This document shows, piece by piece, positions 1 through 16,871 of a DNA stretch of 64,000 nucleotides. The notes below the pieces were generated by a model, which was not told the DNA's origin, did no database searches, and saw only the letters and a program-made list of their open reading frames with translations. This DNA comes from Acidimicrobiales bacterium (GTDB taxonomy: Bacteria; Actinomycetota; Acidimicrobiia; Acidimicrobiales; SZUA-35). The stretch covers positions 33,321-97,320 of the forward strand of contig JABDIY010000025.1 in the NCBI GenBank assembly GCA_013003535.1, read 5' to 3'. Numbering within the stretch: position 1 is the stretch's first letter; the number at the start of each line of letters is the position of its first letter. The position numbers and the translations under genes are program-made.

Positions 1-3000
1 GAAACGGCGATCTCGTTCCAGCTGCGGTCCCAGAGACGAACCGTAGAATCCCGGCTGACGCTTGCCAGTAGCTCGCTATTGGTGCTCCAGGCCACATCTC
101 GCACGGCATCGGTGTGGCCACTGAGGACTGCTGCGGTCTCCCATTTCCCTGTTTCCAGCACCAGCACGTCGGGCGATGCACCGGCGATGGCGAGGAAGTT
201 CTCGGCGGGATCGAATTCGACGGCTCGCACTTCTACTCCCAGGTCGATGATCTCGGTGAGGCTTGGCTCGGTGGTTGAGTCGAGCACAAGAACCTGGCCG
301 CCGAGGGTCGCGCCGACCACCGTTCCGCTGGCGAGTCCGATGGCGATCGCCTGAACGCGGGTCTGCGCTCTACCGACTATTCGCGCCTCACCGGAGGCGA
401 GGTTGACTTCGTGAAGAGCGCCATCGGTGTCGCCGACGTAGGCGAGGCGGCCATCCGCGGTCAACGCCAGGCTGACGAGGGGCGAGCCGAGATTGACTAG
501 CTCCTCTGCTCCTTGTGGTGTGCTTCGCACGATTCGGCCGTCGGAGCCGACGCTGATCGCTTCTGCGGGGCCCGCAAGCTCTACAGCTTGCGCCCGATCT
601 CGGTGGGCGTCGACCACGCTTGTGCCAGCGCTCGCTGTCCACCAGATCAGCCTTCCCGAGCGGCCAGCGGCAACGATTACCTCGGTGTCTTCGCTCGCGT
701 CCAGATCGAGCACCCCTTGTTCGGATCCGGTCTCGGCCAGGGTGTCGACGGCACTCGTTCGTCCCGATACCCATCGGCGAACCGTGCCGTCGCTGCCTGC
801 GGAGACAACGGTGCTCCCGGCATAGGTCACATCTTGCACGTCTCCTTGATGGCCGGTCAGCTCGGTGATCGGGATTCGCAGATTCTCTGGCGACCACAAC
901 CGAATCGTCTCATCGGCGCCGGCAGTGGCGAGCTCGCCCCCGTCGCTCCGTGCGGAGACCGCATAGATCTCGGCGCGGTGGGCTTCATCGATCTCCGTCG
1001 TGGTGTCGGCAGCCTGATTCCACGCTCGAATCGAGTGATCACGACCCACCGAGATGATCGTGTCGCCGACAACGGTGACGTCATGGGCGACGTCGTTGTG
1101 TGATCCCGGTGCAATCGTCACTCGGCTGTTTCCGATCTCAAGCTCGCTGACTCGACCTTCTCGATCGCTGAAAACCAGTCGATCGTTCCCCTCGCGCCAT
1201 TCGATGGAGCGAACCTCGGAATCTGTTGCGTGGCTCAGTTGAGGAGCACCGTTTCCAAGCTCCCACAGCCAGATCCCTCCGTCGCCGGCGACCGCCGCAA
1301 GCGTACCGTCACTGCTGACCGCCACGGCCCGTAGGCGAGCTCCGTCGGTGTTGGTCTGGCTGCGTCCCGATCCACTATCTGATTGAGATCTGCCGCCCCC
1401 AGCTCCTCTAGCGGCGCCGCTCGGCGACGCAACAACGTGCTGCTCGGCAATCGAGCCGTCGCCGGCTTCCCAAACCCGCACCGAGCCGGTCGCATCTATC
1501 GAGACGACCCTGTCCTCGCCGGCAATGAATGCAATATCGCGCACCTCACCGTCATGTCCTGCGAGCTGAATGATCGAACCGTCGGGCCGCCAGATCTGCA
1601 CCGACCCGTCGACTCCTCCGGAGGCAACCATCCCATCGGCACGGGCAGCAACGGCCCGCACCTGCCCCGAGTGCTGGAGCACGATCTGGGACTGGCTGAT
1701 TTCCGCAACGAGCGCTGCGAATAGCGCCTCGCGTGTTTCTTCGGTGGAGCTCACCTGGTCGCCGGCTACCGCGAGAACCGCTGCGAGTGGTAGATCGGCA
1801 CGGAGCAGAGCGGTCTCGGACTCGCTGGCCAGCCGGCGGGCGAGCGCCAGTTGCGACGCCTCCTCGGCACGCGTTGATTCCCGAAGAGCGAGAACCGCAC
1901 CCGCAACGGCGCCGACCAGGAGCAGCACGAGGGCTGAGGCAACTACTTGTCGGACTCGCCGGTTCCGGGTTCGCCGCGCCTGGGAAGCCCGGAGGAAATC
2001 TGCCTCCGCGACCGAGAGGTCAGGGTGAGCCCGACTCACCCATCCTTCGCTCTGTTCCAACACCGAACCCTGCTCCAACAGATCAGCGGTTCGACCCTTC
2101 TCGTGCCACGCCCGGGCGGACTGCCGGAACTCGTTCGCAGTGGCTAGGTCGGCTCGGGAGGCGTCGACCCACTTCTGAAGCTGGGTCCAGCTCGTCAACA
2201 GGGCCTCATGCGCCAACTGGACGCCGTCATCAGTGATGGTGACCAGCCGATGCTGGGCAAGTCGGTCCACCATCGTTCGCTGTCTTTCCGATAGCTCCTC
2301 GCGTGTAGCGGACCCTCGGACGTCGGGTTGGCGTCCCGTAGCTGGCACGATCAGACGCAGGAGAAGTCGTCGCAGCGTCTCCCGCTCGTCTTCCTCCAGG
2401 GATCGGGTGAACTCGTCAGCCGTCCCGGCGAGAGCGCCGGCGATTCCCCCGATCTCGAGGTAGGTGGCCAGCCGAAGCCGGTCACCGCTACGCCGAGCAA
2501 AGATCGTGGCCAAGGCGTGCGATACGTGAGGTAGCGCTGCGGGGGCGTCGAAGGCGTCGTCGACCATTTGCTCTACGAGAGAGTTCTCGATTGGCACGCC
2601 TACGCGCAACGCTGGCCGCTCGATCGCTCGGCGGAGGTCTGCCCTTGCCATCGGACCCACGAAGACGTGTCGGCCGAGCAGGCTGGCTAGTCGGGCGTCG
2701 CTGCCCAGCGGGCCGTAGAAGTCCGAGCGGACACCGAGGATGACCCGCGTTCGTGTCCCGACCTCGGAGAGTTCGATGATCGCAGCGATGAATTTCTCTC
2801 GCTGAGCGGGGTCGGTGCATTGGGTGAGCACCTCCTCGAATTGGTCGATGATAAGAATCTGTCCGCTTCTGCCCTCAGCTGCTTCGCTGCTAGTTGGCGG
2901 CCAACCGACCGTGCGCCGTAGGCGGCTGATCGGTTGCGGGCCCGGCGTGAGGAGTGTCACCGACCACGTAATCTCCTCGCCGAGGCCGCCGGCGCGAATC

Positions 3001-4040
3001 CGTGGGATCAGGCCGGCTCGCAATACTGACGACTTTCCCGCCCCCGATGGTCCGCCTACGATCAGGATGCGATCAACGTGGAGCCGATCGACGATCTCGT
3101 CCACTAGTAACTCCCGACCGCTGTAGAACGCGGCTCGACTCTCGTCGAAGGCGCGCAGTCCGGGATACGGGTTGATGATCTCCGCATCGACCGGCGGCGC
3201 CAGAACCGGCGTTCCTGCGTCGACGAGCGCGCGTAGCGCCGTGGACCATTCGTCGATCGATGAGAACCGGTCCTCTGGGGCCGGGGCGAGACCGCGGGCC
3301 AGAACCCTGCTCCACGGCTCAGTGAGTTCAGCGAGCCGGCTTCGCAGCTCCGGCGGGGTTGGTGGGGGAGCGCCGGTGACGACCTCGCACAACACTGCGG
3401 TAGCAGCGTAGAGGTCGGTGCGATGGTCGACGCTCGACAGGGGCGTCAGCTGTTCGGGCGCCTGGTATCTTGGCGTCCCTCCCAACATCGTCAATGCGTC
3501 GACGCCGGCGCTGAGGTCCTTTGCCAGGCCGAGGTCGGCGATCAGCAGGCGCTCGTCTGGATCGAACAGCTGGCGCTTGGCGGCATCGGGGCGATCGGTC
3601 GTATCGATCAGCAGGTTCCGTGGAGTGATGTCGCGGTGCACTACATCGGCTCGACGGAGCGCATCGAGTCCAGTGCTCACAACATCGATGAGAAGGTGCA
3701 GATCGGCGTTAGTCCACGACGCTGATCCGCCCCGTGCGTCGAGTCGATCGGCCAGCGTACCTCGTTTTGCCAGCGTCATTGTGAACCAGGCTCGACCGTC
3801 GTCGGTCTCGCCGATGTCAAACACCCGGACGAAGGCTGAACAGTCCAAGCGGCGCAGTAACCGTGCCTCTTGAATAAATCGTTCGCGAATTTCCGGATCT
3901 CGGCTCCAACCGATATCGAGTATCTTCAGCGCAACCGTGGTGTCAAGGACCTCGTCTGCCGCCGAGTGCACAGCAGCAAATGCGCCGCGGCCGAGTTGAC
4001 GGTGGACACGATACCGGTCGATCTGCGTCGAGCCGATCAC
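1..4040 (-). CDS. Ser/Thr protein kinase, STAND-type P-loop NTPase (nSTAND-like), single TM helix and WD40-repeat protein; the 3-prime end lies beyond the window edge (>1346 codons)
   Basis: Absent from the ORF track because no stop lies in the window. Hand translation of the minus strand from GTG 4040 stays open to position 1. Kinase motifs: GRGAFAAV..VALK, HRDITPRNLLI, ADLGLAKD, GTPRYQAPE (about 4040-3250). P-loop GGPSGAGKSS (about 3059-3025) and Walker-B-like ILIIDQFEE (about 2858-2831). Helical region ends ...HEALLTSWTQLQKW. Hydrophobic segment VVASALVLLLVGAVAGAVLAL lies at about 1948-1886. Many WD40 units follow (GHDGEVRDIAF, GHQGDVQDVTY, GHTDAVRDVAW..SRDSTVRLWD). Confidence 0.85.
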   Translation of the reverse strand, partial: MIGSTQIDRYRVHRQLGRGAFAAVHSAADEVLDTTVALKILDIGWSRDPEIRERFIQEARLLRRLDCSAFVRVFDIGETDDGRAWFTMTLAKRGTLADRLDARGGSASWTNADLHLLIDVVSTGLDALRRADVVHRDITPRNLLIDTTDRPDAAKRQLFDPDERLLIADLGLAKDLSAGVDALTMLGGTPRYQAPEQLTPLSSVDHRTDLYAATAVLCEVVTGAPPPTPPELRSRLAELTEPWSRVLARGLAPAPEDRFSSIDEWSTALRALVDAGTPVLAPPVDAEIINPYPGLRAFDESRAAFYSGRELLVDEIVDRLHVDRILIVGGPSGAGKSSVLRAGLIPRIRAGGLGEEITWSVTLLTPGPQPISRLRRTVGWPPTSSEAAEGRSGQILIIDQFEEVLTQCTDPAQREKFIAAIIELSEVGTRTRVILGVRSDFYGPLGSDARLASLLGRHVFVGPMARADLRRAIERPALRVGVPIENSLVEQMVDDAFDAPAALPHVSHALATIFARRSGDRLRLATYLEIGGIAGALAGTADEFTRSLEEDERETLRRLLLRLIVPATGRQPDVRGSATREELSERQRTMVDRLAQHRLVTITDDGVQLAHEALLTSWTQLQKWVDASRADLATANEFRQSARAWHEKGRTADLLEQGSVLEQSEGWVSRAHPDLSVAEADFLRASQARRTRNRRVRQVVASALVLLLVGAVAGAVLALRESTRAEEASQLALARRLASESETALLRADLPLAAVLAVAGDQVSSTEETREALFAALVAEISQSQIVLQHSGQVRAVAARADGMVASGGVDGSVQIWRPDGSIIQLAGHDGEVRDIAFIAGEDRVVSIDATGSVRVWEAGDGSIAEQHVVASPSGAARGAGGGRSQSDSGSGRSQTNTDGARLRAVAVSSDGTLAAVAGDGGIWLWELGNGAPQLSHATDSEVRSIEWREGNDRLVFSDREGRVSELEIGNSRVTIAPGSHNDVAHDVTVVGDTIISVGRDHSIRAWNQAADTTTEIDEAHRAEIYAVSARSDGGELATAGADETIRLWSPENLRIPITELTGHQGDVQDVTYAGSTVVSAGSDGTVRRWVSGRTSAVDTLAETGSEQGVLDLDASEDTEVIVAAGRSGRLIWWTASAGTSVVDAHRDRAQAVELAGPAEAISVGSDGRIVRSTPQGAEELVNLGSPLVSLALTADGRLAYVGDTDGALHEVNLASGEARIVGRAQTRVQAIAIGLASGTVVGATLGGQVLVLDSTTEPSLTEIIDLGVEVRAVEFDPAENFLAIAGASPDVLVLETGKWETAAVLSGHTDAVRDVAWSTNSELLASVSRDSTVRLWDRSWNEIAV

Positions 4041-4699
4041 GTGAACTCCAGCCGTTCAGTGAGCATCGTTCGCGCCTTGGCCAAACGGGATCTGACCGTT
4101 CCGATCGGGACGCCGAGATGCGCTGCGATCTCGTCGTACTCGAGTTCGTTCTCGACGCGCAAGAGCATGGTCTCTCGGTAGGGCTCTGCCAGCGCATCGA
4201 GGGCGTCACGCACTGTCGCCCTCGTGACCACGATGCTGCTCATCCTCCGACCGGCAGTTGCGGTGTCCTCAACTTCGTCGGAATTGGGTGTGGCCGAGCC
4301 GTTCTCCCGCCGAAGCCGCATCAGCGCCTCGTTCCGGGCGACAGAGTAGAGCCAGGTGCGGAACTTCGAGCGCCGCTCGAACTTGGCGAGATTTGCTTCA
4401 ACTTTGACAAGGGTCGCCTGCGCTACCTCGTCGACGGCATTGGGCTCGATGATCAGGCGGGTGATCGCTGGACGGGCGAGGCCCAGTTGATGTATCGCCG
4501 TCAACACCACCTCCAGCGCCGCGTCGGATCCGGATTGGGCGGCTTCAACCAGCAAGTTGAGTAGGTCGTCAAGCTCCGGATCGTGGTGCTCCCAGTAGTC
4601 CATGAGCTGGTCGCAGGCGCGGCGGGCGGCGCGGCGCTCGCCGGTTTGCACATCAGCGACGAGGCGATCAATCTGCGAGTTCGGTGACTTACTCCCCAC
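4037..4699 (-). CDS. ECF-type RNA polymerase sigma-70 family factor
   Basis: The 220-aa ORF has a region-2-like segment (FRTWLYSVARNEALMRLRR) and a region-4 HTH (LEYDEIAAHLGVPIGTVRSRLAKAR). GTG start follows a GGGGAGG Shine-Dalgarno. Its TGA stop overlaps the GTG start of the downstream kinase gene (GTGA at 4037-4040). Confidence 0.85.
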   Translation of the reverse strand: MGSKSPNSQIDRLVADVQTGERRAARRACDQLMDYWEHHDPELDDLLNLLVEAAQSGSDAALEVVLTAIHQLGLARPAITRLIIEPNAVDEVAQATLVKVEANLAKFERRSKFRTWLYSVARNEALMRLRRENGSATPNSDEVEDTATAGRRMSSIVVTRATVRDALDALAEPYRETMLLRVENELEYDEIAAHLGVPIGTVRSRLAKARTMLTERLEFT

Positions 4700-4865
4700 G
4701 CCAACCTCCCCTACTCGGACCCTAGCAGGGTCGGAAAAACTTGAACAGCTTGCCCTGACGCTGTCGATGAAGCGCTGGTGTGCGTCATCGTCATCGAAAG
4801 ATCAGGCGAGGCGCTACACGATGCCGGTTGCGTCCTTGATCAGCTCTTTTGACGCGCCAGCACGG

Positions 4866-5723
4866 TCAGGTCGTTCCCTCGCTTGGGTTGGGGAGGCCGA
4901 TGGGGTTCGGAAAGGGAATCGTCTCGCTGCGAACGATGTCCGCTGAGATGAGTGACAACTCGTTGAGGATGTGATCTTGCCGTACCGCCGGCAGTGCTTG
5001 CGTGAACGGTTCACTGGCATGGGAATCCGTGGTGGCCTCGACCTGGGACCTCACCGCCGTCCCTCTGGGCGTGAGTTTGGAACCGACGAGCAGACCGCGG
5101 TCGGCCAATCTCGTTCGTGCATCGTGCTGCTGTGTGACGCTCCACCCACGATTGTTGAAGAAGACCTCAGGGCTCCAGCCGCGCTCGGCAGCGACGAGGA
5201 GGTGCGCTTCGCAGCCGTCTATGCCTGACGCGGCCAGCGCTGCGACATGGCCGTCGCCACGATGTTCGCGCAGCGTTGTGCAGATCTGCCACAACCGTTG
5301 CACCGGATCGTCAAAATGGCCGATGTCGCGGTTCGCTGCGAACAACGGGCGGGCGATCGAAGTTGCACATGAGATCACGGCTTCGAGATCCTCGTTCACC
5401 TGCATTGCAACATCCTCGACGGGAGGCGACAATCTCCGTAGTGCTGCGCCTGCGGCTTGGGCACGAACGATCACGAGATCAGCTGGGTCGGCAAAGTCCC
5501 AGGCGTCCGGGATCGAACGGCGAACCATCCCGGGTTCAAAGTTGGCGAAGACCGCTTCGACCACGCCGGGCGTAACCGGGCCCAGCGGTGATGCTCGGAA
5601 CCCGAAGTAGCCCATCCAGAATCCCCGAAGCCCAGCTGATTTGGCGGCTTCGATCGACTCGCCCGAAAAATAGGTGACCGCATGGATCGACTCCAGATGC
5701 GACCACATCTTGCGCGCAAACAT
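4866..5723 (-). CDS. Conserved actinobacterial hypothetical protein (function not recognised)
   Basis: The 285-aa ORF has normal composition and no competing ORF. It lies on the same strand as its neighbours. I cannot assign a family with confidence. Confidence 0.6.
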   Translation of the reverse strand: MFARKMWSHLESIHAVTYFSGESIEAAKSAGLRGFWMGYFGFRASPLGPVTPGVVEAVFANFEPGMVRRSIPDAWDFADPADLVIVRAQAAGAALRRLSPPVEDVAMQVNEDLEAVISCATSIARPLFAANRDIGHFDDPVQRLWQICTTLREHRGDGHVAALAASGIDGCEAHLLVAAERGWSPEVFFNNRGWSVTQQHDARTRLADRGLLVGSKLTPRGTAVRSQVEATTDSHASEPFTQALPAVRQDHILNELSLISADIVRSETIPFPNPIGLPNPSEGTT

Positions 5724-5741
5724 GCATCGACCATACGTGAT

Positions 5742-6485
5742 TTACGGTGAGGCTGACGTCTGCGAAGCTGTCGCTGATTCCATTGCCTTCGATATCCACT
5801 CGGGGTACCCGTACGACCTGTCGATGCCGAGATCCAGCCGACCCGGCGGCGCAAGCCCCATGCTCAGCGATCGCCATGCTGAGCGGAGCGAATTGCAGTG
5901 TGTGTCGGGCTGACCGAACGCTGCGAACGCCAACGTCCAAGCTTCTCGGCCATTCGCCCAGAGAGCGGCGATCTCCGCATCGCACCCTTGTCCGGTCATT
6001 GCCCGAGTTGACTCCGACAGCAGCTTCTCCTGTCCATCGGTTCCGAACCGTCGCTTTACGATCGTCTTGTCAACGTCCAACCAGACCGAGTCGTGATCCA
6101 GTGTTAGCAGGCGATCCGCGGGGCTCCACCGTCGCCACGTTTCCACGCCTCCGTAAACGTCGGGGGCTATTGAGGCTGGTGCTGGGAGACCCGTTCGTAT
6201 CTTCAGTTCGAGCGTCCGACGAGCCCGTTGCTTAACGCCAATGTGGAGGAAACCGTCCAGGAGGTACGTGTCGCAACGATGCTCGAGCAGGCCTTCGCCC
6301 CCGGGCATGAACCATGACCGCACGTCAGCTTGGAGGGGGCCATCGAAGAACCATCGAAGCTCTGTTGTGCGGGCGACCGAAACGTCGGGCAGGTCTTGAG
6401 CTAGCCGGGGCGATTCGAGTGGCATCGATGTCGTCGTGAGATTGGTCGCGCTGGGGTCGTTCGGCGCGTGATCCATTAGCGGCAT
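5742..6485 (-). CDS. Hypothetical protein, possibly CYTH-like fold (weak)
   Basis: The ORF is open to 6557, but the ATG at 6485 is preceded by GAAAGGGG. The strand pattern (ELRWFFDG.., CDTYLL, RRTLELKIR, VDKTIVKRRF, CDAEIAAL) recalls triphosphate-tunnel proteins, but the canonical ExExK motif is absent. Confidence 0.45.
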   Translation of the reverse strand: MPLMDHAPNDPSATNLTTTSMPLESPRLAQDLPDVSVARTTELRWFFDGPLQADVRSWFMPGGEGLLEHRCDTYLLDGFLHIGVKQRARRTLELKIRTGLPAPASIAPDVYGGVETWRRWSPADRLLTLDHDSVWLDVDKTIVKRRFGTDGQEKLLSESTRAMTGQGCDAEIAALWANGREAWTLAFAAFGQPDTHCNSLRSAWRSLSMGLAPPGRLDLGIDRSYGYPEWISKAMESATASQTSASP

Positions 6486-7015
6486 ACCGATTCCAACCCC
6501 TTTCCCGGACACCGTCGACGGAACGACGCAAGCCACAATTCGATTCAGCCAGAGCATCTGAGCTGTTGGAAGGGTCGAAGGTCACGAGTTGAGGGGCTAT
6601 GCGCGCTGGCGGTGGCTGGTTCTGGAGGCGAGCCGGCGATTTCGCGGCAAGGAGGGTGCTTGGAACGAAAGCTCTGCACGGCTGCTCCCGCTTCGCACCG
6701 AACCAGCACCGGCGACCGACGACCTCGCCACGTTGGCAGCTGTCATCGCCGTATGGGAACGGAACCGGCCTGAATGGCACCGTGACGCCCTTTGCAGAGG
6801 TCAAGGCCATCGATGTCGAGCGGTGGTTCGCATCATGGGCGATTCGGCGCAGTTGGTGTTCCAGCCGTCGGGGTGCATATTGGTTGGAAGGGACAACGAT
6901 CTCGGTCTGAGCCTCGCATTCTGTGCGGCCTCCGCGGCTGGTCGAGGCGAAGTCCTCTAGTGCTGTGTCCCGACCGCGACTGACAATGGAAGCATTTCAA
7001 GCATGGAGGTGCCAC

Positions 7016-7618
7016 ATGTTCCGCGCAACAATCACAATAGTCATCGCAGTCCTACTCGTGACTACCACAGGGTGTTCGCAGGGCAACTCCAACGATGCGA
7101 TCGAGGAACAACTTGCCGCTGTGACGGCCGAGCGAGATGCTCTACTGGACGCAGCATCGCAGCAGCGGCAGGAACGCCATGACCGGGCGCTGGCCACCCT
7201 CGACGAGGTCAACGCGATACTCAATGATCCCGAGGCGTTCGGCTCGGAAGAAGAGATCATCGATGCGATCGCCAGGAACTCGACCGACAGCGCCGTTATG
7301 GACGACGACGTGTTCGGAGCGGTCAACTACCGATCAGCCTTCTACGCCACGCTGTTCGGCGGTTCCGTCGACGCTCGGATCGACGCTTACGACTGGTGGG
7401 TGTCAGAAGACGGCTCTCAAGGAGGCTCCCTGTGGATCTGGTACGGAACGAACGCTGCAGGGAACCCGTTCGAGTTAACCGGGCTGACCCTCACTGAATT
7501 CTCCGAGGACGGACGCATTGAATACGACCTGGTCACGTACCCCTACTCTGACGACTACGTGCGGAGAGCGTTCCGCGGCGAAGGCACCCCCACGCCCTCG
7601 ACGCAGGCCGATCAATAG
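7016..7618 (+). CDS. Putative lipoprotein (unknown function)
   Basis: The internal ATG at 7016 is preceded by GGAGGT. The N-terminus MFRATITIVIAVLLVTTTGC has a signal peptide plus lipobox-like TTGC. The track ORF starts further upstream at 6923. Confidence 0.6.
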   Translation: MFRATITIVIAVLLVTTTGCSQGNSNDAIEEQLAAVTAERDALLDAASQQRQERHDRALATLDEVNAILNDPEAFGSEEEIIDAIARNSTDSAVMDDDVFGAVNYRSAFYATLFGGSVDARIDAYDWWVSEDGSQGGSLWIWYGTNAAGNPFELTGLTLTEFSEDGRIEYDLVTYPYSDDYVRRAFRGEGTPTPSTQADQ

Positions 7619-7883
7619 TTGTCCCGCCAAGTGCCGAGTTCATCCCCGGCCGAAACGCTGCCCGACCAGGTACGACACAGTTTCCGGCCCCCACAGGCTG
7701 TTCCCTGGTCCGAACCGAGACGTGAACACCTTGCCATTGTCTGTGAGGATCTCTCGGGCACACCCCAAGTCCCCATCGCTTGCGCCAAAGCATCAGCGAC
7801 CGGCCGCGCGGTCGCCCGCCGAACCACATGACTCCATCGGACGTGACCGTTCCCACCGCCCTTTTGTTCACGGATGCGAGAGT

Positions 7884-7899
7884 GTATCACCTGTGATAC
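7884..7899. promoter_or_regulatory. Perfect palindrome GTATCAC-CT-GTGATAC just upstream of vapB (candidate antitoxin operator)
   Basis: The 7-bp arms lie at 7884-7890 and 7893-7899, 10 nt upstream of the vapB ATG. Type II antitoxins typically autoregulate through such sites. Confidence 0.4.
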
Positions 7900-7908
7900 A
7901 GTAGGTGC

Positions 7909-8145
7909 ATGGTTGATGTTTCGATTCGAGAGTTGCGTAACCATGGCGGCGACGTTGTGGACCGTGTGGCTCGCGGTGAGCGTGTGACGGTGACCCGGAG
8001 CGGTAAGCCAGTTGCAGAACTGCGCCCGCTTGGTGCTGGAGGAGTGCCAGTTGCTGAGTTGGTCCGTCGCCGTGCGCACCTTCCCGAGGTTGATCCGGTC
8101 GCGCTTCGTGAGGACCTGGATGCGGTGATCGATGGTTCGTTGTGA
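7909..8145 (+). CDS. vapB: Type II antitoxin, Phd/YefM-like (VapB partner)
   Basis: 78 aa. The N-terminus VSIRELRNHGGDVVDRVARGERVTVTRSGKPVAEL is typical of Phd/YefM antitoxins. It overlaps the PIN gene by 4 nt. Confidence 0.8.
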   Translation: MVDVSIRELRNHGGDVVDRVARGERVTVTRSGKPVAELRPLGAGGVPVAELVRRRAHLPEVDPVALREDLDAVIDGSL

Positions 8146-8555
8146 GCAGCAGCGGCATTTTGGATACGAGTACCCTGATTTTGCTGGGTCGTGTCACTGC
8201 GCTTGATGCGTTGCCCGATGAGGCGTTCATTACTGCGGTGACCTTGGCCGAGCTGTCGGTCGGTCCGTTGGTGGCCAAGACCGATCAGGAGCGGGTTGCG
8301 CGTCAAGCTCATCTTCAGGCGGCCGAGGCAGATTTTGATCCGTTGCCGTTCGACGCTGCGGCGGCGCGGGCCTTTGGTGGGGTTGCGGCGTCGTTGCGCA
8401 GTGTTGGCCGCAAGCCTGCTGCCCGGGCCTATGACGCGATGATCGCGGCGATCGCGGTGGCAGCGGACTTGCCGGTCTACACCTGTAATCCAAAGGACTT
8501 CGAGGGAATTGCCGGGCTGAACGTTCTCGCGGTGCCCCACCCTGACCACGGCTGA
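8142..8555 (+). CDS. vapC: PIN-domain ribonuclease toxin VapC
   Basis: 137 aa. ILDTSTLI carries the first acidic residue, and TLAELSVG and CNPKDF are typical PIN elements. Confidence 0.85.
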   Translation: MSSSGILDTSTLILLGRVTALDALPDEAFITAVTLAELSVGPLVAKTDQERVARQAHLQAAEADFDPLPFDAAAARAFGGVAASLRSVGRKPAARAYDAMIAAIAVAADLPVYTCNPKDFEGIAGLNVLAVPHPDHG

Positions 8556-8556
8556 G

Positions 8557-8830
8557 TTGTTTCGTTGTTTATTGGGCAGCGGTACTTGGATCGAACGCAC
8601 CTACCACCGGCGCCGCCGACTCGGCCGATTGACCCCAACGGTCGACACCAGGGTAGCCCGCAGCGATCTCACCGACCGCGACCAGTGGAGGTTCGACATC
8701 GGCCCGTCCCGCGGTGGCGAAGGAAGGCTCGACCTGCGATGAAATCATGCGCTACCTCGACTGGTACAACCACCACCGGCGACACACCGCACTGGACATG
8801 AGATCACCCATCAAACTACGAACAAAACCA
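8557..8830 (+). pseudogene. Two short C-terminal fragments of DDE (rve-type) transposases
   Basis: WIERTYHRRRRLGRLTP and, in another frame, MRYLDWYNHHRRHTALDMRSPI match the conserved ..W..YN..R.HSALG..P tail of IS3/IS481-type integrase-core transposases. No catalytic core is present. Confidence 0.55.
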
Positions 8831-9051
8831 GCAGGCGGCACCACAAGCCGCGTAACCAACCCGTGTCAACACAACCGGGTCAGCTCCACTCGTCCGAACA
8901 CGCGTCTGCTTGAGGTCGATCCGATAGATACAGGGTTCATGCAGAGTCGGCTTCAATCAGCCGCGCCTATCTCCGATAGATCCAGCCCGTCGAAAGGGCT
9001 CTGCGGGAATGTTTGCGGGAAGTGTGTGGCTGTCGTTTTGATTTGGGGGTG

Positions 9052-9327
9052 TTAAGCGGAGAGTTTGGCGGCGTATTTGCGCTGGGCGGCTTGTTTGGAG
9101 ACACCCAACATCGCACCGATTTCGGACCATGAACGGTTTGCGTCACGGGCATTACGGATCGCGTCGAGGAGGGCGTTGTCGACGTCGTCTCGTTGTTCGA
9201 CTAACTCTGCGATAGTCCGGAGCGCGGCAGTGTTGGCTTCGACCAGGTCGGCGGGGTCGACTTGGTCGGCCCAACGCTCGATTGCTTTGGCTTGTTGTGC
9301 TCGCGTTGTGTTCATGGTGTCCACCAA
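9052..9327 (-). CDS. Small HTH protein, probable antitoxin of a two-gene module
   Basis: 91 aa with a C-terminal HTH (SWSEIGAMLGVSKQAAQRKY). It overlaps the upstream small ORF by 16 nt. Confidence 0.55.
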   Translation of the reverse strand: MVDTMNTTRAQQAKAIERWADQVDPADLVEANTAALRTIAELVEQRDDVDNALLDAIRNARDANRSWSEIGAMLGVSKQAAQRKYAAKLSA

Positions 9328-9548
9328 CCTTTCAGGAATTTGGATCGTGCTGGCATGGCGTGGATGATCGCTACGCCATCGGCATCATCGACGACGCCGA
9401 CTTCTAGCGGTTCGGCGTTTGCCGATGGTCCAATGAACAGGGTGACGTCGGGATCATCGGTCTGGAAGCTTCGCCAGTGGTGTCGGAGTGCATGGAGCAT
9501 GTCATCATCGGAGACATCGTGCTTGCGGGCGCTCGCCTCGATGTCCAC
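9312..9548 (-). CDS. Small toxin-like protein (family not confidently recognised; BrnT-like gene order)
   Basis: 78 aa (ARKHDVSDDDMLHALRHHW..). The order of upstream small protein followed by a downstream HTH gene resembles toxin-first TA modules. Confidence 0.45.
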   Translation of the reverse strand: MDIEASARKHDVSDDDMLHALRHHWRSFQTDDPDVTLFIGPSANAEPLEVGVVDDADGVAIIHAMPARSKFLKGWWTP

Positions 9549-9990
9549 TGTTTCAGTCTACCCGCCACAACCGACACCGTCAACATGTGTTGACGAATGG
9601 TGTTAGGGAGGGTTCGGGGCCGATAAGTGTTCCCACGTGCACAACTTGGTGAGGTCCGGGCGCTATCAAGATGCGAAGAAGCGCACTGATCTGCGAGACA
9701 CTGAATGAACTACCTGAAACTCACTTGAATGGATGGCTGAACAGGGCCCGCAGGTCCTGAGCATGTTTGATTTGTACGCATCCCGTACAGCAATGATCTC
9801 CCAGAAGAACTGCAGCTTTGGTTCGACCTAGCTGTTCCGAATCGCGTTCGCCCGCCAGCGTCAACGGCGGACCCGTAAAAGCCACACCTTCTTCGACACA
9901 CAAAATCAACAAAATCGCTGACTTCGGTAGCGCATCCCTGGAACTAGTCCCGATGCGGTGGCGAACTTGGAGGTTGTAGAGTTTTCGACG

Positions 9991-10521
9991 ATGAGCACCA
10001 GTTGGCGGTTGATCCTGGTGGTCACGCTGTTCATGGGAGCGTGCACTTCGTCTGGCGGCGGCAGTGATGATGCAAACGACGCGCTTGGGCAGATCCTCAG
10101 CGTCACTCGGGCCCGTTCAGAAGTCGGCGATTCCGATGACTTCGGCGGGCGATCTATGGGGATCGAGCGGGAGTTTCGAGGTGCATCTGCGTGTGTATAC
10201 ATCCATCGAACGACTCCCGGGGGCGACACGTACGCGCTTCGGGTGCTGTTGGCGAACGCACCTGAGGCGGTTGGTGAGGATTGGTTTTCGGTGGATGGGC
10301 TGGTGGTCCGCTCTGGCGATCGGATTAGTGGAGACGCTGAGCTTGGTTCGGCGGAACGACCGCCGGCGGTCGCAGAACTCTACGCCGCTGCGAAGCAGCA
10401 ACTAGCTGAGGCCTGTGAGTCATTCAAGCTTGAAGAAGTGTTTGATGAGGTGTTCGATGAGGTTCCGATCATATTCATCGAAGAAAATCGAACCCAGGCG
10501 GACACCGGCGAGATCGAGTAA
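9991..10521 (+). CDS. Putative lipoprotein (unknown function)
   Basis: From the ATG at 9991, MSTSWRLILVVTLFMGAC has a signal peptide plus lipobox. The flanks have lower GC. Confidence 0.55.
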   Translation: MSTSWRLILVVTLFMGACTSSGGGSDDANDALGQILSVTRARSEVGDSDDFGGRSMGIEREFRGASACVYIHRTTPGGDTYALRVLLANAPEAVGEDWFSVDGLVVRSGDRISGDAELGSAERPPAVAELYAAAKQQLAEACESFKLEEVFDEVFDEVPIIFIEENRTQADTGEIE

Positions 10522-10590
10522 CAGTGGCTATTTAGATGCTATCCCAGAAGGGCAACTCTGGAATCATTCACGCAATAGTCCACAACCGGA

Positions 10591-10886
10591 ACTGTTGATT
10601 TCTGTGTGTAAGTAGGGGTGGCCTTAGCGGGTCGGCCTTGTGGTTCGGCAGAGTGTCAGATTGTCACGTATTGTCAACGGAGCGATAATCCGCAGGTCGA
10701 TGACTCCTCGTGCGCCACTGAACTGGTCAAATGCCTTGGACGAGGTCGCTGTCCCTCACCAGCATCCAACGGTTTTGGCTGGATGAAACGTTGGATTCGA
10801 GCTCCCACGGTCACGCCGGTCGGCGCGTTCCCCTGTTCAGCTTGGTACACCCCCTGAGACTTGAACCCAAAACCTGCGGATTAAGA
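10591..10886. repeat. Direct repeat copy 1 (about 296 bp), containing a 44-nt 3-prime fragment of tRNA-Lys (10843-10886, minus sense)
   Basis: It aligns along its full length with 16441-16726, with several indels and scattered substitutions. Similarity stops exactly inside the tRNA anticodon region (..GGATTAAGA). This is att-like. Confidence 0.8.
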
Positions 10887-10959
10887 CGGCCTTGACAAGG
10901 GTCCCAAAAGTCCGGTGTCGTTCGGTGAACAAGGGATTCGTCCGGCGGGTTGTCCGGAC

Positions 10960-11901
10960 GCTCCAGATGCCGGCGACGGGTCCGACTGGTTCGTTGGCTA
11001 TCGGGTTGGACGCACGGGCGCTCGATACGGGGCACAGATCCTGTGACCTGCAGTGACGCGTTCGCGGCACCCGCAGGGCTCGGGCATCGGCGCGCTGGTC
11101 AGCGCAGCGGAGGGCAGGTTGCGCGGGTAATCTGGGTTGTCCAATCATCGGTGGGGTTGGCTGTAGCACCGGAGCAGACCACCTCCCTGGTGTTGACCTT
11201 GATGAAGAACAGGGCGTTTTTGCGGCGCAAGGGCGGCGGTGTCGACGGTGGATAGTCACATGCGACCGTTGCCAGGGAGCCCAGGAACTCAGTCGGGTTC
11301 ACCTCAGATTGGCTGGGAGACGGGCGGATGTCGGTGTCGGTGAGGATCTGCCAGATAGTGGTTCTGGCTATAGTGTGACCGAGTCTGGACATTTCGCCCT
11401 GGTTTTCGGTATGCCAGGTCAGGTTTCTCTGGCGAGTAGCAGGATGAGTCGCATATCTCAATAGCGGTGGTGTGACCGTGGGTCGAATAGGTGGCTGGGT
11501 CCAGTAGCGGCGATTCATCTGCGGTGCCGTCGCAACAACGTCTCGAGTGTGACGATCCAGCCGTCGCTGAGTCGGCGGGGCAGCGCGGCTGCGGCAGCGC
11601 CGAGTAGGCCTGGGTTCATCGTTGAGCGCAGGTCAGGTAATTCAACGGCGGAGCACCGTGTTTTCGTGGCGGAGCACGATGATCTCGAGATCTTTGGAGC
11701 GCCCAGAACGAACGGCGAGACGCGCCGGAGAGCTGAAGAAGCTGTAGAGGGTACGGAACACGATGACTCGGATGGCTGGCATCGGGCCTCGTCAGCACCC
11801 ACGACCCACTGAAGGGTCACCACAGGGCATAAGACGGAACCGATGGTGCTTGGGGTCGGGAGTCCGTTTTCACGGTCGCGTTTTGCCAGCGTCACAGCCA
11901 C
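10960..11901 (-). pseudogene. Frameshifted DDE (integrase-core) transposase remnant
   Basis: Pieces lie in different frames: DLEIIVLRHENTVLRR, ..TLETLLRRHRR, QGEMSRLGHTIARTTIWQILTD, ALFFIKVNTREVV..ANPTDDWTTQITR. These are typical blocks of an actinobacterial rve-transposase family. There is no intact ORF. Confidence 0.65.
10978..11077. repeat. IS-end-like repeat, copy A (about 100 bp)
   Basis: GGGTCCGACTGGTTCGTTGGCTATCGGGTTGGA.. is shared with 12551-12649 and 15674-15765. It lies at the 3-prime end of the transposase pseudogene. Confidence 0.6.
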
Positions 11902-12006
11902 AACATGGTTGACGATTCAGGTCGTCTTAGGCAATCTTGAATTGACAAGAAATGCGCGTTGCCCAATACGTGCGATGGCTAGCCGAGCGGATGAGCAGGT
12001 GGTGTT

Positions 12007-12492
12007 GTGTCTGACCCCGACCACACTGGTGTGTATGTTGCGACAATCGTGGCCGCGATCATCGGAGCCGTTGGCGTGCTTGGCGCAGCGCTAATTGGGA
12101 ACTGGGACAAGATCACGAGCGAAAGTGACACTCCGGTTGCTGCAACTGAACAGTCCGCTGCTGATCAGGCGACTTCTGGATCAGTTGCTCCTAGCCAGAG
12201 AAGCACAAGTCCTAACGAACCATTAGATCGAACGGCCGAAACGCTAGCGCCTGATACATCCAGCTGCTCAATCGCCGTCGACCACATCGGTGCAGCGATC
12301 CACGCCGAGTCCAGGTTTGATTCTCGCAGAATTGTCTCAGTTCCAGAAGGCGATTACAGCGCCCTCGGTTGGGAGGAATCCGAGTGGGCTGGCACAACAT
12401 CCATTTGGTTCCTCATTAACGTCAACGGACGAGAGGGTTGGATTGCTGACGACGGCATATCGATCGTTGGCAAGACCGCAACCTGTCCGTAG
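12007..12492 (+). CDS. Hypothetical membrane-anchored protein
   Basis: 161 aa with an N-terminal TM segment (VYVATIVAAIIGAVGVLGAALIG), a low-complexity linker and a small C-terminal globular part. Confidence 0.5.
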   Translation: MSDPDHTGVYVATIVAAIIGAVGVLGAALIGNWDKITSESDTPVAATEQSAADQATSGSVAPSQRSTSPNEPLDRTAETLAPDTSSCSIAVDHIGAAIHAESRFDSRRIVSVPEGDYSALGWEESEWAGTTSIWFLINVNGREGWIADDGISIVGKTATCP

Positions 12493-12550
12493 CATACGCC
12501 ACCCTGGGTGGGCGGATGTTAAGAACATCTTCCACCGACAGCAGGCTGCG

Positions 12551-12649
12551 GGGTCCGGATGGTTCGTTGGATTTCGCGTTGGATGTTCTGTGCCGACTCT
12601 CGGTCGCCTATCCGGTGACCTCGAGCGACCGTTCTCGGCTCCTGCAGGG
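12551..12649. repeat. IS-end-like repeat, copy B
   Basis: GGGTCCGGATGGTTCGTTGGATTTCGCGTTGGATGTTC..CCGGTGACCT..GCGACCGTT aligns with copies A and C. No adjacent transposase ORF. Confidence 0.55.
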
Positions 12650-12956
12650 TTCAGTGGTGGGTGATTGGGCCCGTACCTCGGCGCGCATTGTGACACGGCG
12701 AGGTCAGCCGTCTGCGCAGGCTGATTGCAGTGGTTGGTCGCCCGGGATTTGCCCGGCGGCTGCGTCGGCCGGCGAGCCGGGGGAGAGTGCCGCTCCGGAG
12801 CCGCTTGTCGCCGCTCCGATATCGATCGCAAGGTGATTCGAGGTCGAGGCTGGCTCGCATCAAGATGCTCGTTCCTCCGACCCGATCTCATGGGCTTGTG
12901 TAGGGTCCTAAGAGTGTGGGTCATTGCACCCGTAGGAGTCGAGGGAGGACAACCGC

Positions 12957-16440: not shown

Positions 16441-16726
16441 ACTGACGATTTCTGTGTGTGTAAGTATGGGTGGCCCTTAGCGGTTCGGCAGAGTGTCGGA
16501 TTGTCCGTAGTGACAACGGAGCCATTATCCGCAGGTCGATGACTGCTAGCGAGCCGGTGAACAGGTTAAACGCCTTGGACGGGGTCGCTGTGCCTCACGA
16601 GCATCCAACGGTTTTGGTTGGACAAAGCGTTGGATTCGAGCTCCCACGGTCACCCCGGTCGATGTGTTTGCCCTGGTCGGCTTGGTACACCCCCTGGGAC
16701 TTGAACCCAGAACCTGCGGATTAAGA
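16441..16726. repeat. Direct repeat copy 2 (about 286 bp), covering the 3-prime 44 nt of the intact tRNA-Lys plus about 240 bp downstream of it
   Basis: It aligns with 10591-10886 (see copy 1). Confidence 0.8.
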
Positions 16727-16758
16727 GTCCGTTGCTCTGCCAATTGAGCTAGAGGTGC
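16683..16758 (-). tRNA. tRNA-Lys (anticodon CUU), CCA encoded
   Basis: Hand-folded cloverleaf: acceptor GCACCTC/GGGGTGT (2 G-U pairs), D arm GCTC..GAGC, anticodon arm ACGGA-CTCTTAA-TCCGC, T arm CTGGG-TTCAAGT-CCCAG, terminal ACCA. Confidence 0.9.
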
Positions 16759-16796
16759 TTGTAGTTGACGTCTCAGCGTAGCGGAGAAATCTTGAG

Positions 16797-16871
16797 GGTG
16801 ACCGAGGGGATTCGAACCCCCGACATCCAGGATCACAACCTGGCGCTCTAACCAACTGAGCTACGGCCACC
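16797..16871 (-). tRNA. tRNA-His (anticodon GUG) with encoded G-1; CCA not encoded
   Basis: G-GTGGCCG TA GCTC AGTTGGTTA GAGC G CCAGG-TTGTGAT-CCTGG ATGTC GGGGG-TTCGAAT-CCCCT CGGTCAC C. The extra 5-prime G opposite discriminator C is the His identity feature. Confidence 0.9.

Follow-up and report, generated by a model that had tools for sequence, protein, structure and literature searches.

How is a sigma factor of the extracytoplasmic function (ECF) group controlled when no anti-sigma gene lies beside it and its own gene overlaps that of a giant kinase? This question is raised by a 64,000-nucleotide (nt) stretch of DNA from an Acidimicrobiales bacterium of the Actinomycetota (GenBank assembly GCA_013003535.1, contig JABDIY010000025.1, positions 33,321 to 97,320), hereafter the window. 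At one end of it, an ECF sigma gene is followed on the minus strand by the gene for a receptor that joins a Hanks-type Ser/Thr kinase domain, an nSTAND1 nucleoside triphosphatase (NTPase), and a WD40 array. Together, the two genes probably form a co-transcribed, translationally coupled signalling module. With moderate confidence, we favour outside-in signalling from this transmembrane STAND-kinase to the co-encoded sigma factor; the locus is probably an uncharacterised variant of the kinase-activated sigma pathway.

A sigma gene and its overlapping receptor gene

The sigma open reading frame (ORF) extends on the minus strand from 4699 to 4037 and encodes 220 amino acids (aa); a GGGAGG ribosome-binding site (4710-4705) lies 5 nt to the 5' side of its GTG start. 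Its TGA stop (4039-4037) and the GTG start of the receptor gene (4040-4038) share the tetranucleotide GTGA at 4037..4040. An in-frame stop at 4058-4056 closes the receptor frame on the upstream side; no start codon intervenes before 4040, and the in-frame start that follows this GTG is codon 24, which falls inside the glycine loop of the kinase. The frame stays open through 1346 codons to base 3 and then leaves the window; because it runs off the edge, the receptor gene is missing from the program-made list of ORFs. A first-pass annotation made from the letters alone had placed the overlap at 4037-4040, taken the GTG at 4040 as the first possible start, and described a downstream frame of more than 1346 codons absent from the ORF list, all of which the coordinates bear out. 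The receptor of a relative (locus L001) is about 1418 aa in full length; thus, about 72 aa are expected beyond the window.

The upstream gene (4037..4699) encodes an ECF sigma factor of group 4, composed of sigma2 and sigma4 only, with a short linker between them. Pfam places Sigma70_r2 at aa 82-133 and Sigma70_r4_2 at aa 163-213, with region 3 absent, and the NCBIfam model TIGR02937 (sigma70-ECF) is matched at 76.5 bits against a cutoff of 42.9. Matches by sequence and by fold in the PDB include RpoE, AlgU, SigW, and SigH, and the AlphaFold2 model reaches a mean predicted local distance difference test score (pLDDT) of 89.8. The protein is 100% identical to an NCBI protein from an Acidimicrobiales metagenome-assembled genome. 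Its family comprises 12 clusters at 50% identity (E <= 1e-30) and, as far as sampled, is restricted to Acidimicrobiia. Residue 10 of RpoE aligns at sigma residue 45, leaving an N-terminal extension of about 44 residues (aa 1-44; 4568..4699, minus strand) that is conserved across the family and modelled as two helices (6-18 and 22-37; pLDDT 97-98). The extension may serve in autoinhibition or kinase docking; Foldseek matches to the sigma model were ordinary ECF sigmas only and were uninformative for this part. The extension (IDRLVADVQTGERRAARRACDQL) also looks like a copy of the adjoining segment downstream (LLVEAAQSGSDAALEVVL), with which an ECF sigma usually begins. A generic pattern taken from the full sigma alignment, [VI]P[VI]GTVRSRL, was discarded, as a contig scan with it listed unrelated ECFs of at most 40% identity.

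Around this gene, nothing corresponds to the canonical pairing of an ECF sigma with an anti-sigma factor. The gene upstream of sigma (5723-4866) encodes an HTH_67 protein and the next one (6557-5742) a protein with no Pfam match; neither product has a hydrophobic segment, and neither carries a ZAS or RskA-type domain, in agreement with the first-pass annotation. Searches of Pfam and NCBIfam likewise found no anti-sigma-domain, ZAS, or RskA signature in the receptor itself. In relatives where a further gene separates sigma from kinase, that gene encodes a lipoprotein, not an anti-sigma factor.

The 5' side of the sigma gene is near-identical between the window and L001 for about 50 nt, and the sequence further upstream differs; the end of conservation marks the upstream boundary of the two-gene module. 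The conserved leader (4705..4750, minus strand) holds TGTTCA (4747-4742), a 17-nt spacer, TAGGGT (4724-4719), and the GGGAGG element, of which TGTTCA-17 nt-TAGGGT might represent a putative promoter. A sigma-70 consensus scan gave no match upstream of the sigma gene. One ECF-type candidate, GGAAC-N18-CGTC about 178 nt 5' of the sigma start, is absent from 14 of 14 relatives and was rejected as a chance match. A sigma-70-like site does occur on the minus strand within the receptor gene, about 95 nt in (3919-3946; TTGACA, 16 nt, GATACT; 10 of 12 matches, with 0.1 expected in shuffles), and could be either an internal promoter or a chance occurrence.

The receptor begins with a Hanks-type Ser/Thr kinase domain (aa 10-270; 3231..4013, minus strand), matched by Pfam Pkinase over aa 10-227 (E 1e-27) and aligned both to PknE (2h34; E 1.9e-25) and to PknB. 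Relative to these kinases, the core motifs from the Gly-rich loop through APE are all present: GRGAFA, K39, E58, H135-R-D137 and N142 within HRDITPRN (135-142), D169-L-G (169-171), and APE. The domain had initially been described as a complete kinase. This description holds for the core catalytic residues that align to PknE and PknB; it does not hold for the catalytic-loop Lys, which is a Thr, or for the DFG motif, which is DLG throughout the receptor clade. In most relatives the loop reads HRDxKPxN and in a few HRDVNP[KR]N; the form in which an Arg stands two positions after the substituted Thr is confined to the branch of the window and L001. The HRDLAARN loop of Tyr kinases resembles this arrangement. 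From the residues present, kinase activity is predicted to be likely but not certain.

The kinase is followed by an nSTAND1 NTPase module (aa 291-652; 2085..3170, minus strand) that matches the PF20703 profile over positions 1-378 of 379 (E 2.5e-104; 350.4 bits against a gathering cutoff of 27.1). Its Walker A motif, GPSGAGKS (G330-S337; nt 3053-3030), and its Walker B motif, DQFEE (D399-Q-x-E402; within nt 2858-2832), both on the minus strand, are invariant in 64 homologues, as are the individual residues G330, G333, G335, K336, S338, D399, Q400, and E402. The C-terminal part, from about aa 790 to aa 1346 (1..1673, minus strand), matches WD40 and many other beta-propeller families of Pfam and is predicted to be extracytoplasmic. 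The protein therefore has the tripartite STAND layout of effector, NTPase, and repeat sensor, here as kinase-nSTAND1-WD40. Profile searches thus recovered all three families (Pkinase, nSTAND1, and WD40), and the STAND-like P-loop NTPase and the WD40 array running past the window edge, both proposed in the first-pass annotation, are confirmed. For receptor residues 1-760, AlphaFold2 gave a mean pLDDT of 91 and a predicted template modelling score of 0.79.

Between NTPase and WD40 array lies the one hydrophobic 19-mer of the receptor (aa 699-717; nt 1946-1890), with a Kyte-Doolittle mean of 2.72; the single hydrophobic helix had been expected at 1886-1948. The segment RRTRNRRVR precedes this transmembrane core, and Lys plus Arg number 7 on its N-terminal side and 2 on its C-terminal side, a strong positive-inside bias. 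In the AlphaFold2 model, the core is contained in a single 70-residue helix (aa 677-746; 1803..2012, minus strand) that exits the NTPase module. The same arrangement recurs in the wider family. Of 93 homologues in which a Walker A motif is recognisable, 69 carry a hydrophobic segment (Kyte-Doolittle mean of at least 1.9), whose median distance from that motif is 398 aa in the downstream direction; most of the remaining 24 stop short of this point, and of the 8 that extend far past it, 7 have a weaker segment there (1.56-1.89). Basic residues are more frequent on the N-terminal side in 67 of the 69 (means of 6.1 and 2.7 in the 15 residues on either side). Nearly every homologue that reaches far enough thus has the helix, and helix and basic flank occur regardless of the effector (kinase, HTH, SARP, TIR, or caspase) and of the sensor (WD40, FGE-sulfatase, or pentapeptide) among P0122-P0240. 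The domains that depend on ATP have to lie in the cytoplasm, which by prediction puts the WD40 array on the extracytoplasmic side; a single-pass receptor with kinase and NTPase inside and WD40 outside is supported by these features. Compared with the relative in locus L082, identity is 66% in the kinase, 55% in nSTAND1, and 39% in the WD40 part, which thus diverges fastest. As a separate observation, the nSTAND1 family looks largely transmembrane with external sensors, and a membrane helix is not mentioned in the passages of Kaur et al. (2021) that define it.

Conservation of the pairing and alternative partners

Whether the adjacency extends to relatives was examined in two ways, by contig look-ups of sigma homologues and by scanning metagenomes with a sub-alignment specific to the family and then applying local tblastn. 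Linkage is kept in 11 distinct loci (L001, L082, L086, L087, L089, L093, L096, L098, L099, L101, and L113), with sigma identity falling to about 45-50%, and the Pkinase-nSTAND1-WD40 gene follows sigma either directly or after a lipoprotein gene. In L001 (sigma identity 91%) and L082/L083 (55%), the genes overlap by 4 nt (ATGA) and the receptor gene encodes about 1418-1431 aa; a 4-nt overlap is thus kept in three lineages. In L113, the receptor gene stands right behind sigma after a 20-nt gap. The order of sigma gene, lipoprotein gene (160-175 aa), and receptor gene is found in L087/L088 (51%) and L086 (49%), and this lipoprotein arrangement was also detected by metagenome scan and local tblastn in L093-L096, L098, and L099. 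In L101, a lipoprotein gene follows sigma and the contig ends within it, so the kinase gene is not visible there. The order is reversed in L084 (52%), where a large WD40 ORF ends at the sigma start.

When the sigma factors are placed in a neighbour-joining tree, a clade with direct linkage (the window, L001, L082, and L113) separates from a sister clade with lipoprotein and kinase genes and from an unlinked clade. Gene order thus follows sigma phylogeny, and this congruence indicates that the arrangement co-evolved with sigma. The genes neighbouring the module differ between the window and L001, which suggests that the pair is portable as a unit. In L001 (10633-14889 of a 2.47-Mb contig), the receptor gene is split into three overlapping ORFs of 599, 717, and 127 aa, and similar splits occur in the contig_NNNN assemblies L086, L089, L090, and L092; these are probably assembly frameshift errors, not pseudogenes.

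The closest receptor homologues (37-44% identity) are all Pkinase-nSTAND1-WD40 proteins of Acidimicrobiia, and they differ in the genes beside them. Sigma and lipoprotein genes lie upstream of P0122 (L089). P0126, P0128, and P0129 (L090-L092), paralogous receptors of 37-39% identity, have no sigma gene; an FHA-guanylate cyclase gene adjoins each receptor (L090:9366-10280, L091:3409-4386, and L092:3475-4978), and a lipoprotein gene of the same family lies directly upstream of the receptor gene. The FHA domain is a reader of phospho-Thr. Two genes away from a more distant Pkinase-nSTAND1-FGE protein, locus L165 holds a gene for an FHA-sigma54 activator (L165:10159-11658). Because the gene adjacent to the receptor is repeatedly a signalling output, either a sigma factor or a phospho-Thr reader with an output domain, sigma can be read as the downstream partner of the kinase, and this recurrence is the strongest indirect argument for that reading; the swap between sigma and FHA-cyclase suggests as much.

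The lipoproteins form a family of their own (160-175 aa) with 42-65% identity among L086, L087, L089, L090, and L091 (L087:8739-9221, L086:8788-9315, L090:4511-4993, L091:4473-4994, and L089:4321-4880, the last frameshifted). A lipobox and the motifs NACPxEGC, NHFHVYWD, CVTAGDRDHNV, and DCRDVS characterise the family, which has no Pfam match at E up to 1. In L092, its presence directly upstream of the receptor rests on a tblastn match. A 197-aa ORF upstream of a distant receptor in L164 likewise has no Pfam match at E up to 1. The lipoprotein gene precedes the receptor gene whether the linked partner is a sigma factor or an FHA-cyclase, and a secreted lipoprotein partner fits an extracytoplasmic sensor. 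By tblastn, the family is absent from the window, and it is absent from L001 and L082 as well. A lipoprotein ORF in the window (6923-7618) was considered as a member and proved unrelated.

How the sigma factor may be controlled

Phosphorylation of a sigma factor by a neighbouring kinase has precedents in group ECF43. As in the pairs EcfP-PknT of Vibrio parahaemolyticus and EcfK-PknS of Xanthomonas citri, the sigma gene adjoins that of a single-pass Hanks kinase and no anti-sigma gene is present; those kinases carry extracytoplasmic repeats too (TPR in PknS), for which WD40 stands here. ECF43 sigmas lack the acidic motif of region 2.2, and a phospho-Thr there activates them (PMC8999054); the positions read STTA or QTTA (PMC8999054, PMC13147305). 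Phosphorylation thereby supplies the negative charge for RNA polymerase binding, and the linker of EcfK is phosphorylated as well (PMC8999054, PMC13147305). The present sigma factor shares one ECF43 hallmark, a co-encoded Hanks kinase without an anti-sigma gene, but not the other, the replacement of the acidic DAED/DxxD by a conserved Thr. By alignment to 1or7, the equivalent of DAED (DVPD in RpoE) is A87-V-D-E90 (4430..4441, minus strand), for which the family consensus is x-V-D-D, and the acidic content of residues 84-92 is 3.06, compared with 3.8 in generic ECFs. Because Asp-Glu is retained at these positions, the region 2.2 mechanism of ECF43 is inapplicable here. The locus further differs from ECF43 pairs in the nSTAND1 module of about 400 aa between kinase and membrane and in its actinobacterial host.

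A different acceptor is suggested by the linker between sigma2 and sigma4. Residues 139-155 are modelled as disordered (pLDDT <50), and at the C-terminal end of this linker stands R152-M-S154-S155 (4235..4246, minus strand), a candidate phospho-acceptor whose R152, S154, and S155 are each conserved in at least 90% of 113 sigma family members. In the same members, segment 150-160 contains on average 0.03 acidic, 2.0 basic, and 2.9 Ser/Thr residues, compared with 2.35, 1.41, and 0.93 in 80 unrelated generic ECFs. In EcfK of X. citri, PknS phosphorylates T104, T106, S108, and S110 of the linker; EcfK does not function without T106, whose position is held by acidic residues in other sigmas (PMC13147305). 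Since EcfK T106 both replaces acidic residues and is phosphorylated, the R-x-S-S / Thr-rich segment at the linker end is the best candidate acceptor. An R-x-S-S-hydrophobic motif before sigma4 also marks a wider ECF clade (P0241-P0385) and occurs neither in the 80 generic ECFs nor in 41 distant metagenome loci; at the best plasmid match within this clade (Gordonia), no kinase gene lies nearby.

From these observations, we infer the following pathway. The external WD40 propellers (about 700 aa) would bind a ligand that is probably a protein or a component of the envelope, and the signal would travel via the long juxtamembrane and transmembrane helix. The STAND module would then oligomerise in a nucleotide-dependent manner, so that the kinase domains at the N-termini meet and trans-autophosphorylate. 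Once active, the kinase would phosphorylate the ECF sigma factor encoded just upstream, presumably at the R-x-S-S / Thr-rich segment of the linker end and not at the region 2.2 site of ECF43, and thereby allow productive binding to RNA polymerase. A more general proposal is put forward tentatively, as possible but somewhat doubtful: nSTAND1 proteins would be transmembrane, NLR-like outside-in receptors in which a ligand bound outside drives NTP-dependent oligomerisation inside, and whose signalosome-like oligomer, in the Acidimicrobiia clade, serves as a kinase platform that activates sigma by linker phosphorylation without an anti-sigma factor, with interchangeable outputs (sigma, FHA-cyclase, or fused HTH/SARP).

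Several observations weigh against this pathway. The catalytic loop HRDITPRN (nt 3615-3638) has a Thr where the catalytic Lys is expected. With its acidic region 2.2 kept, the sigma factor may not be intrinsically inactive. R-x-S-S also occurs in the unlinked sigma subclade and is therefore not specific to kinase-linked members; among the top 150 representatives, most have it, with identity falling to about 33%. About 8 loci of the sigma family (L103, L104, L106, L107, L111, L115/L118, and L116) have no kinase gene in the available flank, and in L111 none lies within 7 kb on either side. A comparison of 14 relatives revealed no conserved autoregulatory ECF-type promoter upstream of sigma. Phosphorylation of sigma by the kinase is accordingly put forward as a candidate step only.

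Three other explanations deserve consideration, each of which we regard as unlikely. In one, the receptor cytoplasmic part or the sigma N-terminal extension would hold sigma inactive in the manner of an anti-sigma factor until a signal releases it, and the kinase would serve itself or other substrates. The normal acidic region 2.2, which may leave sigma competent and in need of a negative regulator, fits this explanation, as do the lack of a separate anti-sigma gene and the conserved extension with its two confidently modelled helices. Translational coupling is how sigma/anti-sigma pairs match their stoichiometry, and the overlap here would do the same. However, the receptor has no anti-sigma-domain, ZAS, or RskA signature, its conserved kinase motifs argue for a catalytic role, and the separation of the genes in the lipoprotein clade and their reversal in L084 indicate that strict coupling is not required. 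Co-expression without direct control is similarly improbable: sigma, controlled elsewhere or transcriptionally, would merely drive the receptor gene, and the kinase would target unlinked substrates such as FHA proteins. ECF sigmas commonly transcribe their own operons, related receptors have FHA-cyclase partners without any sigma factor, and several sigma-family members lack a kinase gene in the available flank, all of which suits this explanation. Against it, the overlap kept in three lineages and the congruence of gene arrangement with the sigma tree point to co-evolution beyond co-expression, the partner position holds signalling outputs in both receptor clades, and the conserved ECF-type promoter that autoregulation would call for was not seen.

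The remaining explanation, to which we likewise assign a low probability, is a conflict or immune system in which WD40 detects an invader molecule, the STAND module oligomerises, and the kinase acts as a broad effector on host or phage proteins, with sigma as a transcriptional arm or driver of the locus. In the sections of PMC8195603 that concern nSTAND1, the domain is defined within predicted conflict systems with S/T/Y kinase effectors, and some related systems are said to respond transcriptionally through ECF-like HTH modules. The kinase domain matches the defence-kinase models PD-T4-6, mad6, and Stk2 of PADLOC, the relative L091 lies near AIPR and integrase genes, and the WD40 sensor is the fastest-diverging part. 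The PADLOC matches, however, cover only the generic kinase domain (aa 1-344), with none for the NTPase, sigma, or neighbouring genes, and thus do not identify a specific system. Moreover, a sensor on the outer side of the membrane, as predicted here, has no access to phage proteins within the cell, housekeeping or regulatory genes surround the module in the window and in most relatives, and the alternative partners (sigma and FHA-cyclase) are regulatory, not toxic effectors. Outside-in signalling from the receptor to its co-encoded sigma factor therefore remains the preferred reading. The first-pass annotation had proposed such a receptor, with the kinase acting on the co-translated sigma, and none of the three outcomes that it named as refuting was obtained: the adjacency is kept in relatives, the kinase aligns with its catalytic residues in place, and a transmembrane helix separates NTPase and WD40 array. 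The topology and a functional link between the two genes are thereby supported, whereas phosphorylation of sigma stays a proposed step.

Related systems and surrounding sequence

ECF groups found beside Ser/Thr kinases without an anti-sigma factor, which the first-pass annotation had given as established, are indeed catalogued: ECF43, 59-62, 217, 267, and 283 (PMC7826278, PMC8999054). For these groups, control by the adjacent kinase is predicted on the basis of synteny. ECF283 is actinobacterial, with a Nocardioides representative (WP_056749340.1); only ECF43 pairs have been tested experimentally, and the kinase-associated groups other than ECF43 retain a DAED-like motif with nearby Ser/Thr (PMC7826278, PMC8999054). 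The present locus resembles ECF59-62, ECF217, ECF267, and ECF283 in its syntenic Ser/Thr kinase and lack of an anti-sigma gene. It differs from them, as compared by description in the literature found, in that no NTPase is reported in their partner kinases.

The receptor also resembles the nSTAND1 effector-NTPase-sensor proteins (PF20703) in its tripartite layout with a C-terminal repeat or lectin sensor, as set out in the nSTAND1 passages of Kaur et al. (2021, eLife). Kinases of the S/T/Y type are among the effectors of nSTAND1 proteins listed in the corresponding part of PMC8195603. Unlike in the counter-invader systems described there, whose sensors bind invader molecules, the sensor here would face the outside of the cell and a sigma factor is encoded by the linked gene; neither a membrane helix nor a linked sigma figures in those passages of Kaur et al. 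(2021). Effector-associated domains or a diversity-generating retroelement were not seen in the region examined. For many single-pass kinases of planctomycetes, WD40 arrays are predicted to be periplasmic (PMC11032199), and these STK-TM-WD40 proteins resemble the receptor in having a Hanks kinase in the cytoplasm, a single transmembrane helix, and propellers outside. A beta-propeller is likewise the extracytoplasmic part of PknD, a receptor Ser/Thr kinase of Mycobacterium tuberculosis. Unlike the receptor described here, both the planctomycete kinases and PknD are without a STAND NTPase between kinase and membrane, and they are not described with an ECF sigma gene.

Classic STAND-type transcription regulators include MalT and AfsR/SARP-LAL, and many nSTAND1-WD40 homologues carry N-terminal HTH or SARP DNA-binding domains. 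In all of these, an NTP-dependent switch controls transcription, as is proposed here; in MalT, AfsR, and the HTH- or SARP-nSTAND1 proteins, the DNA-binding domain is fused, whereas here the output would be indirect, from a kinase to a separate sigma factor. Because HTH/SARP-nSTAND1 proteins are common, the wiring of a STAND module to transcription is not new in itself. In the literature found, no kinase with an nSTAND1 module between sensor and kinase output is paired with an ECF sigma factor. The earlier suggestion that such wiring is uncharacterised therefore survives in a narrower form: it applies to a STAND module within a kinase receptor with an ECF sigma output, and not to ECF/kinase pairs, kinase effectors of nSTAND1, or STAND-to-transcription control, each of which is known.

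If the proposed pathway is correct, sigma control by phosphorylation, to date shown only for proteobacterial ECF43, would reach into Actinomycetota and involve another acceptor region. STAND NTPases, mostly regarded as sensors in the cytosol, would in addition act as an amplifying step within a receptor that spans the membrane. Because nature has exchanged the outputs on a single type of receptor (ECF sigma, FHA-guanylate cyclase, or fused HTH/SARP), comparison offers a handle on target choice by the kinase, and the two-gene unit of sigma and receptor is small enough for reconstitution.

Elsewhere in the window, positions 5700-12900 contain no ORF of at least 280 aa and several ORFs without a Pfam match. 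GC content falls to 0.56-0.59 at 9-11.5 kb, GC skew rises in the 5700-12900 stretch, and an integrase-core (rve_3) fragment lies at 8714-9055; the stretch may be decayed mobile DNA. The ORF at 6923-7618, on the plus strand, encodes 231 aa with a signal peptide and a lipobox (LVTTTGC) and has no Pfam match. Genes for tRNA-Lys and tRNA-His are located at 16683-16870.

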